Origin: Escherichia phage EcM-vB1
DNA: 64,000 nucleotides
Sequence record: PV574017.1
Direction: 5' to 3' (one strand)
This document shows, in pieces, positions 12,589 to 13,006 of this stretch (the stretch's first letter is position 1; every line of letters begins with the position of its first letter). Position numbers and translations under genes: made by a program. The notes beneath the pieces are model-generated. The model was not told where the DNA came from, did no database searches, and worked only from the letters and a program-made list of their open reading frames with translations.

Positions 12589-12765
12589 ATGTCAGAAGTA
12601 ATTTACGTAGCAACTTATGGTTCTCTTCGTCGTGGTCAAGCTAACTATTTAGTTAATGACCGAGCTGGTGCTAAGTCAATTGGTGAAGGTTGGACTGAAG
12701 ACAACTTTGATCTGTTCCGTTATGGTGGTTCCTACTTCCCGAGCATCTCTCGCACACAGCAATAA
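12589..12765 (+). CDS. gamma-glutamyl cyclotransferase / AIG2-like protein, N-terminal part of a frame-disrupted gene
   Basis: ATG 12589; YGSLRRG motif and YFP; not in track (58 codons). Confidence 0.55.
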   Translation: MSEVIYVATYGSLRRGQANYLVNDRAGAKSIGEGWTEDNFDLFRYGGSYFPSISRTQQ

Positions 12766-13006
12766 CAACAAGCCTGTTCGTGTAGAAGTGTTTGCTACTG
12801 ACAAAGCAGGTCTGGAAGGTCCGTATGACCGTCTGGAAGGTTACAACAAACGTAGCCCTGAAGACAGCTTCTATCAGCGTACTCAGATTGCTGTTAAGAT
12901 GGACTCAGGTGAAACTGTTATCGCTTGGATTTATCATATCGACGAAGAACAAGATGTTCTGGTTGAATCTGGCGACTGGTCAGAGTATCTGAAAAGTGAA
13001 TCTTGA
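12656..13006 (+). CDS. AIG2-like protein, C-terminal part (homologous region from about 12766)
   Basis: KPVRVEVF...LEGY...AWIYHID resembles GGCT/AIG2 C-terminal half. Confidence 0.55.
   Translation: MTELVLSQLVKVGLKTTLICSVMVVPTSRASLAHSNNNKPVRVEVFATDKAGLEGPYDRLEGYNKRSPEDSFYQRTQIAVKMDSGETVIAWIYHIDEEQDVLVESGDWSEYLKSES

Follow-up and report, generated by a model that had tools for sequence, protein, structure and literature searches.

The gamma-glutamyl cyclotransferase (GGCT) gene of Escherichia phage EcM-vB1 is spread over two reading frames in the sequence record PV574017.1, and the likeliest reason is an artefact of sequencing or assembly, a 2-bp deletion, rather than a biological feature of the phage. 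The 64,000-nucleotide stretch of this record that was analysed is referred to here as the window. In the phage itself the gene would be a normal single gene of 139 codons; one TC of a (TC)4 tract would have dropped from the sequence, leaving codons 1-54 in frame 1 and codons 55/56-139 in frame 2. With the TC restored, the product would be a single-domain GGACT/AIG2-like enzyme encoded beside a cluster of amidoligase, COOH-NH2 ligase, GATase and ATP-grasp genes, and no biological mechanism would be needed to account for the split.

Two overlapping open reading frames carry the gene in the window. The first (12589..12765, frame 1) encodes 58 residues, MSEVIYVATYGSLRRG...YFPSISRTQQ, closed by a TAA stop at 12763-12765, and its full translation is MSEVIYVATYGSLRRGQANYLVNDRAGAKSIGEGWTEDNFDLFRYGGSYFPSISRTQQ followed by the stop. 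The second (12656..13006, frame 2) encodes 116 residues, including ...LAHSNNNKPVRVEVF...AWIYHID..., with the C-terminal end ...SLAHSNNNKPVRVEVFATDKAGLEGPYDRLEGYNKRSPEDSFYQRTQIAVKMDSGETVIAWIYHIDEEQDVLVESGDWSEYLKSES followed by a stop. The first-pass annotation had described a frame-1 piece with YGSL, a stop at 12763 and a frame-2 piece with AWIYHID, all of which are present in these translations, and had read them as one AIG2/GGACT gene in two frames and not as two genes, a reading on which the tblastn search, the Pfam halves and the nucleotide alignment agree. Using phiEco32 gp77 as the tblastn query, residues 1-54 mapped to frame 1 at 12589-12750 with 100% identity, and residues 54-139 to frame 2 at 12746-13003 with 97.7% identity. 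Since the two pieces cover positions 1-48 and 51-119 of the Pfam GGACT profile, they are contiguous halves of one domain and no chance juxtaposition. Where the relatives read SLAHSNNNK, the frame-1 tail of the window reads RTQQ. As for the second frame, the Pfam match of its 116-residue product begins at residue 30, and inspection of the sequence before the ATG at 12656 found no Shine-Dalgarno-like sequence; the stretch it opens is the N-terminal GGCT coding sequence read in frame 2, and this ATG is not a real coding start.

An alignment against family members had been suggested as the way to locate the junction. We aligned the gene with six relatives, which placed the junction exactly. Outside a 2-nt gap the column identity is 99%, and this gap is the sole length difference, with GAGCA-TCTCTCTC-GCACAC in the relatives against GAGCA-TCTCTC-GCACAC in the window. 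The frame change is thus caused by a (TC)4 tract that has become (TC)3 at 12746-12751, one TC unit (2 bp) being lost inside the interval 12740-12765 and away from any long homopolymer, as the first-pass annotation had anticipated. The CCC at 12738-12740, put forward there as a possible shift site, was rejected, being unchanged in every relative; the gap falls in the TC tract, 6 nt further downstream. The direction of the shift had also been described as opposite to that of the other frame changes. Arithmetically this holds, the GGCT gene passing from frame 1 to frame 2 and the ATP-grasp, GFAT and gp76 genes from 3 to 2 or from 2 to 1 by tblastn, which corresponds to 1-bp deletions; as a sign of a different event it does not, all unpaired indels of the window being deletions. 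A 1-bp insertion behind this direction was discarded, the alignment giving a 2-bp deletion instead, and since a 2-bp deletion moves the frame as a 1-bp insertion would, the opposite direction marks no separate kind of event. The coordinates of the gene, its pieces and the other features are collected in Table 1.

Table 1. Features of the split GGCT gene, neighbouring cluster genes and unpaired deletion sites (window coordinates).
Feature	Position	Strand	Remarks
Whole GGACT/AIG2-like gamma-glutamyl cyclotransferase gene, phiEco32 gp77 orthologue	12589..13006	+	418 nt vs 420 nt in relatives
N-terminal homologous part, residues 1-54, frame 1	12589..12750	+	tblastn vs gp77; Pfam profile 1-48
YGSL motif, residues 10-13	12616-12627	+	within N-terminal part
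(TC)3 tract, site of 2-bp deletion	12746..12751	+	relatives (TC)4 = TCTCTCTC; alignment and indel catalogue
Out-of-frame tail of frame-1 reading	12751..12765	+	RTQQ then TAA; without counterpart in relatives
C-terminal homologous part, frame 2, restored residues 56-139	12752..13006	+	AHSNNNKPVRVEVF...KSES and stop; tblastn; Pfam 51-119
Out-of-frame 5' part of mechanical 116-aa ORF (MTELVLSQLVKVGLKTTLICSVMVVPTSRASL)	12656..12751	+	frame-2 reading of GGCT N-terminal coding sequence
COOH-NH2 ligase type 2	5804..6610		part of phiEco32-type peptide-ligase cluster, window 3634..13006
Amidoligase_2	7234..8337		part of phiEco32-type peptide-ligase cluster
Unpaired deletion sites	154, 967, 1580, 1709, 3070, 4888, 10203, 11319, 12745 (TC)
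Unpaired deletion sites, continued	13144, 25947, 26701, 33945, 34000, 45605, 53679, 55690, 61347

The restored 139-residue protein, represented by the EcP-vB orthologue (the window nucleotides plus TC), matched PF06094 (GGACT, gathering cutoff 22.8 bits) in one stretch with 63.6 bits, covering profile positions 2-119 of 120. The N-terminal piece of the window scored 18.7 bits, below the cutoff, and the C-terminal piece 39.2 bits. The PHROGs match was to phrog_2520, gamma-glutamyl cyclotransferase (E = 9.7e-45), in the auxiliary or 'moron' category. The N-terminal YGS/TL substrate-binding motif is present as Y10-G11-S12-L13, aligned with the YGTL of PH0828 and of mouse GGACT. A direct sequence search of solved structures gave weak matches (best E = 0.072), all of them to the GGACT/AIG2-like family, and the corresponding alignments (1V30, 1VKB and 2KL2) span residues 5-77, unbroken through the restored junction. 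Past the end of these alignments at residue 77, and inside the part matched by Pfam, Glu84 lies within D81-R82-L83-E84-G85-Y86. The conserved catalytic glutamate of the family lies in the C-terminal half (Glu82 in human GGACT, Glu98 in GGCT), and Glu84 of the conserved DRLEGY segment is presumably its equivalent. The restored enzyme would presumably yield 5-oxoproline by cleaving gamma-glutamyl amide linkages. With YGSL on the 58-residue stub and DRLEGY in the other frame, neither piece by itself should have activity.

A megablast search with positions 10800-15100 against a phage collection retrieved 98 records, nearly all of them phiEco32-group phages (Kuravirus, Gordonclarkvirinae) of Escherichia or Shigella. 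The top matches were EcP-vB and EcK-vB (99.9%) and Ec3-ASingh (99.8%), with FS2B, ShigP1 and phiEco32 at 98-99%, and by these matches the window can be assigned to a phiEco32-like Kuravirus coliphage. In phiEco32, gp77 (YP_001671822.1) is a single intact ORF of 420 nt and 139 residues, annotated as 'gamma-glutamyl cyclotransferase' and earlier as 'conserved YtfP/UPF0131 protein'. Its neighbours are the ATP-grasp gene gp80 plus two small ORFs to one side and gp76 plus the primase/helicase to the other. A single 420-nt gene is also annotated in EcP-vB (XTK90027.1, Pfam:GGACT), FS2B (UAG58454.1) and ShigP1 (XOF08997.1). Apart from the 2-nt gap, the DNA of EcP-vB and EcK-vB is the same as that of the window across the gene, with zero substitutions.

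Upstream of the GGCT gene, the cluster comprises a COOH-NH2 ligase type 2 (PF14395), an Amidoligase_2 (PF12224), a GATase-domain protein and the ATP-grasp gene; no Pfam match was found for the cluster neighbours 3634..4830, 4936..5811 and 6620..7237. The amidoligase cluster has been discussed by Iyer et al. (2009), as cited in PMC10580990, as a system that modifies peptides or the cell wall. The gap that follows the gp78 orthologue and precedes the GGCT start holds, at 12527..12550, an inverted repeat (AGCCTCTTCGAAAGAGGAGGCT) that is GC-rich and imperfect; it has no T-tail and for this reason was not called by a simple terminator scan.

The overlap of the two frames, which jointly span the whole domain, is the sole point in favour of a functional arrangement, either a programmed +1/-2 ribosomal frameshift or separately made pieces that assemble as a split GGCT. 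In the recoding version the full-length 139-residue product would carry the junction peptide ...YFPSISLAHSNNNK... We consider such an arrangement extremely improbable. It is not conserved, all relatives having an uninterrupted ORF that is two bases longer. The junction, AUC UCU CGC ACA, holds neither an X XXY YYZ heptamer nor a +1 site of the CUU or CCC-stop type, and to our knowledge AUC-UCU-CGC is not among the known slippery motifs. The homology switches frame at the TC tract and not at the TAA stop, and the predicted RNA fold of the 101 nt from 12740 is no better than that of shuffled sequences (z = -0.51). Promoter-like and terminator-like matches were likewise at shuffle or chance level. 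Regarding a split enzyme, the ATG of the second-frame ORF lies 96 nt upstream, adds 32 non-homologous residues and is not preceded by a Shine-Dalgarno sequence, and the YGSL motif and the segment with the conserved glutamate would sit on different polypeptides. Being unconserved, with no slippery site, no structure and no credible second start, a programmed frameshift or split enzyme is effectively excluded.

The nature of the lesion is better judged against the indels of the assembly as a whole. The entire window was compared with the complete genomes of phiEco32, Ec3-ASingh, EcK-vB and EcP-vB, with gaps left-normalised and paired indels in divergent segments set aside. Relative to phiEco32 and Ec3-ASingh, the window has about 18 unpaired indels, the one in GGCT included (Table 1), and all of them are deletions, mostly losses of 1 bp where the same base is repeated 2-6 times. 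Of the 18, about 10 occur in the window alone and the remainder are common to EcK-vB and/or EcP-vB. By mapping to phiEco32 genes, with confirmation by tblastn, the genes split are gp7 (at residue 389), gp14 (393), gp83 (about 600), gp80 (145), gp77 (54) and gp76 (about 55); in addition, gp87 and the tail fibre gp20 lose their 5' ends to deletions, gp20 being disrupted at 45605.

Among these genes the large terminase is the most telling. This protein, gp7 (513 residues), is divided at residue 389 into 61239..62513 and 60973..61266 on the - strand, the site at about 61347 reading TT vs TTT, and in EcK-vB the terminase is intact and annotated with 1542 nt. No phage can form plaques without a functional large terminase. 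The 1-bp deletion in this gene is an assembly error, and since a split terminase is incompatible with a viable phage, at least some of the deletions in the window are errors. The ATP-grasp gene gp80 (397 residues) is split at residue 145 into 10890..11345 and 11372..12082, at the C-rich tract GCTCCCGCCCCCCT at 11316-11324. Here the window is short of one C in the C6 run, and EcK-vB and EcP-vB are short of one C in the adjacent CCC run; different 1-bp deletions in three sibling records suggest that the tract is a systematically mis-called site. The GFAT-like gene gp83 (676 residues; 8417..10443) is split near residue 600 at about 10203 (A5 vs A6), a deletion common to the window, EcK-vB and EcP-vB that may reflect a systematic error or else a mutation truly present in this lineage. 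In gp76 (12996..13259; 67 residues in phiEco32, phrog_10819) a frameshift at about 13144 (T4 vs T5), with an adjacent C-to-T change, gives an 87-residue ORF that overruns the primase/helicase start at 13225. The tail fibre gene gp14 (52584..54859, - strand) is split at residue 393, at about 53679 (CCC vs CCCC). This deletion and the one at 45605 are common to EcK-vB, whose annotation likewise has gp14 in two pieces.

The balance of indels and substitutions points in the same direction. Over positions 1-32000 the window shows 6 substitutions only with respect to EcK-vB and EcP-vB, with 13 indels vs EcK-vB and 10 vs EcP-vB, and these two records each have private indels as well. A ratio of indels to substitutions above 1 in the coding DNA of near-clonal genomes is the signature of noise in the reads or the consensus and not what divergence leaves behind. 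Deletions common to EcK-vB and EcP-vB, such as that in GFAT at 10203, could nevertheless be real lineage mutations, so that not every indel need be an error. A literature search found no publication giving the sequencing platform of EcK-vB and EcP-vB.

Elsewhere in the genome the substitutions with respect to EcK-vB and EcP-vB fall in patches, at about 32000-36000 and 46000-50000, and with respect to EcP-vB also at about 40000-42000 and 60000-64000. The patches contain the HNH endonuclease/gp26 region and the tail fibre gp19 region, and outside them the genomes are essentially the same. Positions 32930-33641 of the window have no aligned counterpart in EcK-vB or EcP-vB. From their distribution, the patches look like mosaic or recombinant segments among otherwise clonal phages.

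The shortened tract was found in the window and in no other sequence collection searched. In a blastn search with 101 nt of the window, the site in the middle, (TC)3 was absent from the 74 matching phage records, none of which reached at least 99% identity to the query, and in all 60 of the matches listed (of 74) the record spans 103 nt vs the 101 nt of the window. IMG/VR was scanned with the variable-spacer pattern TTCCCGAGCA-N{2,14}-GCACACAGCAA; (TC)3 was absent there too, both matching contigs (n=2) having the 8-nt spacer. An exact-protein look-up in a public gene-position collection found neither the 58-residue nor the 116-residue truncated product on record. A phase-variable simple-sequence-repeat locus was also considered and rejected, the tract having four units only and showing no departure from (TC)4 in the other records examined.

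These searches bear on the one alternative of some weight, namely a genuine and recent slipped-strand mutation on (TC)4 that turned GGCT into a pseudogene, the 58-residue stub keeping YGSL and losing the C-terminal half with the conserved glutamate. We regard it as unlikely, though clearly less so than a functional two-frame arrangement. Exactly one repeat unit is gone, which is what slippage on a short tandem repeat classically produces. No other unpaired deletion of the window removes 2 bp or falls in a dinucleotide repeat; the TC loss is thus unlike their dominant class of 1-bp events, which speaks for slippage and against an artefact. Moreover, four-unit dinucleotide tracts number only 4-5 per genome in this lineage (5 in EcK-vB, 5 in EcP-vB and 4 left in the window), so that a strike of noise at one of them would be uncommon. 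Lastly, GGCT, as an auxiliary or 'moron' gene, is probably dispensable: its loss would probably be tolerated, and hence the viability argument, valid for the terminase, is without force here. Against slippage stand the absence of (TC)3 from every other record, contig or protein collection searched and the intact gene of EcK-vB and EcP-vB, which are free of substitutions in GGCT; further, a terminase frameshift impossible in a viable phage makes the indels of the window untrustworthy as a class. In long-read sequencing, moreover, contraction of dinucleotide repeats is a well-known type of consensus error, which would apply if the window record came from such a platform. We therefore infer that the missing TC is probably an error rather than a true mutation.

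If (TC)3 were true, EcM-vB1 would be a natural GGCT knockout beside the amidoligase/ATP-grasp cluster, and the gene would be dispensable for propagation on the laboratory host. Under the favoured reading of a sequencing or assembly artefact the matter is one of quality control: annotation of this record, with its many frame-breaking deletions, will present the terminase, tail fibres, GFAT, ATP-grasp, GGCT and gp76 as split or 'hypothetical' pieces, and the frame splits in the EcM-vB1 record are not to be taken as biology.

Compared with known systems, the restored protein resembles the PF06094 family (UPF0131), which includes E. coli YtfP, P. horikoshii PH0828 (1V30) and mouse GGACT (1VKB/2KL2), in its full-length profile match and its YGSL motif, and differs from the solved members in being distant in sequence, with a predicted cyclotransferase activity. 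The lesion has its likeness in the homopolymer and short-repeat deletion errors of draft phage assemblies, the unpaired indels of the window being all deletions, falling mostly in short runs, being spread over coding genes, essential ones among them, and exceeding in number the substitutions with respect to the near-clonal siblings; it differs from them in that the GGCT event drops a dinucleotide unit and not a single homopolymer base. The closest comparison is with phiEco32 gp77 and its Kuravirus orthologues, which occupy the same gene position as the window gene, whereas the window is one TC short, with 418 nt vs 420 nt, and changes frame after codon 54.
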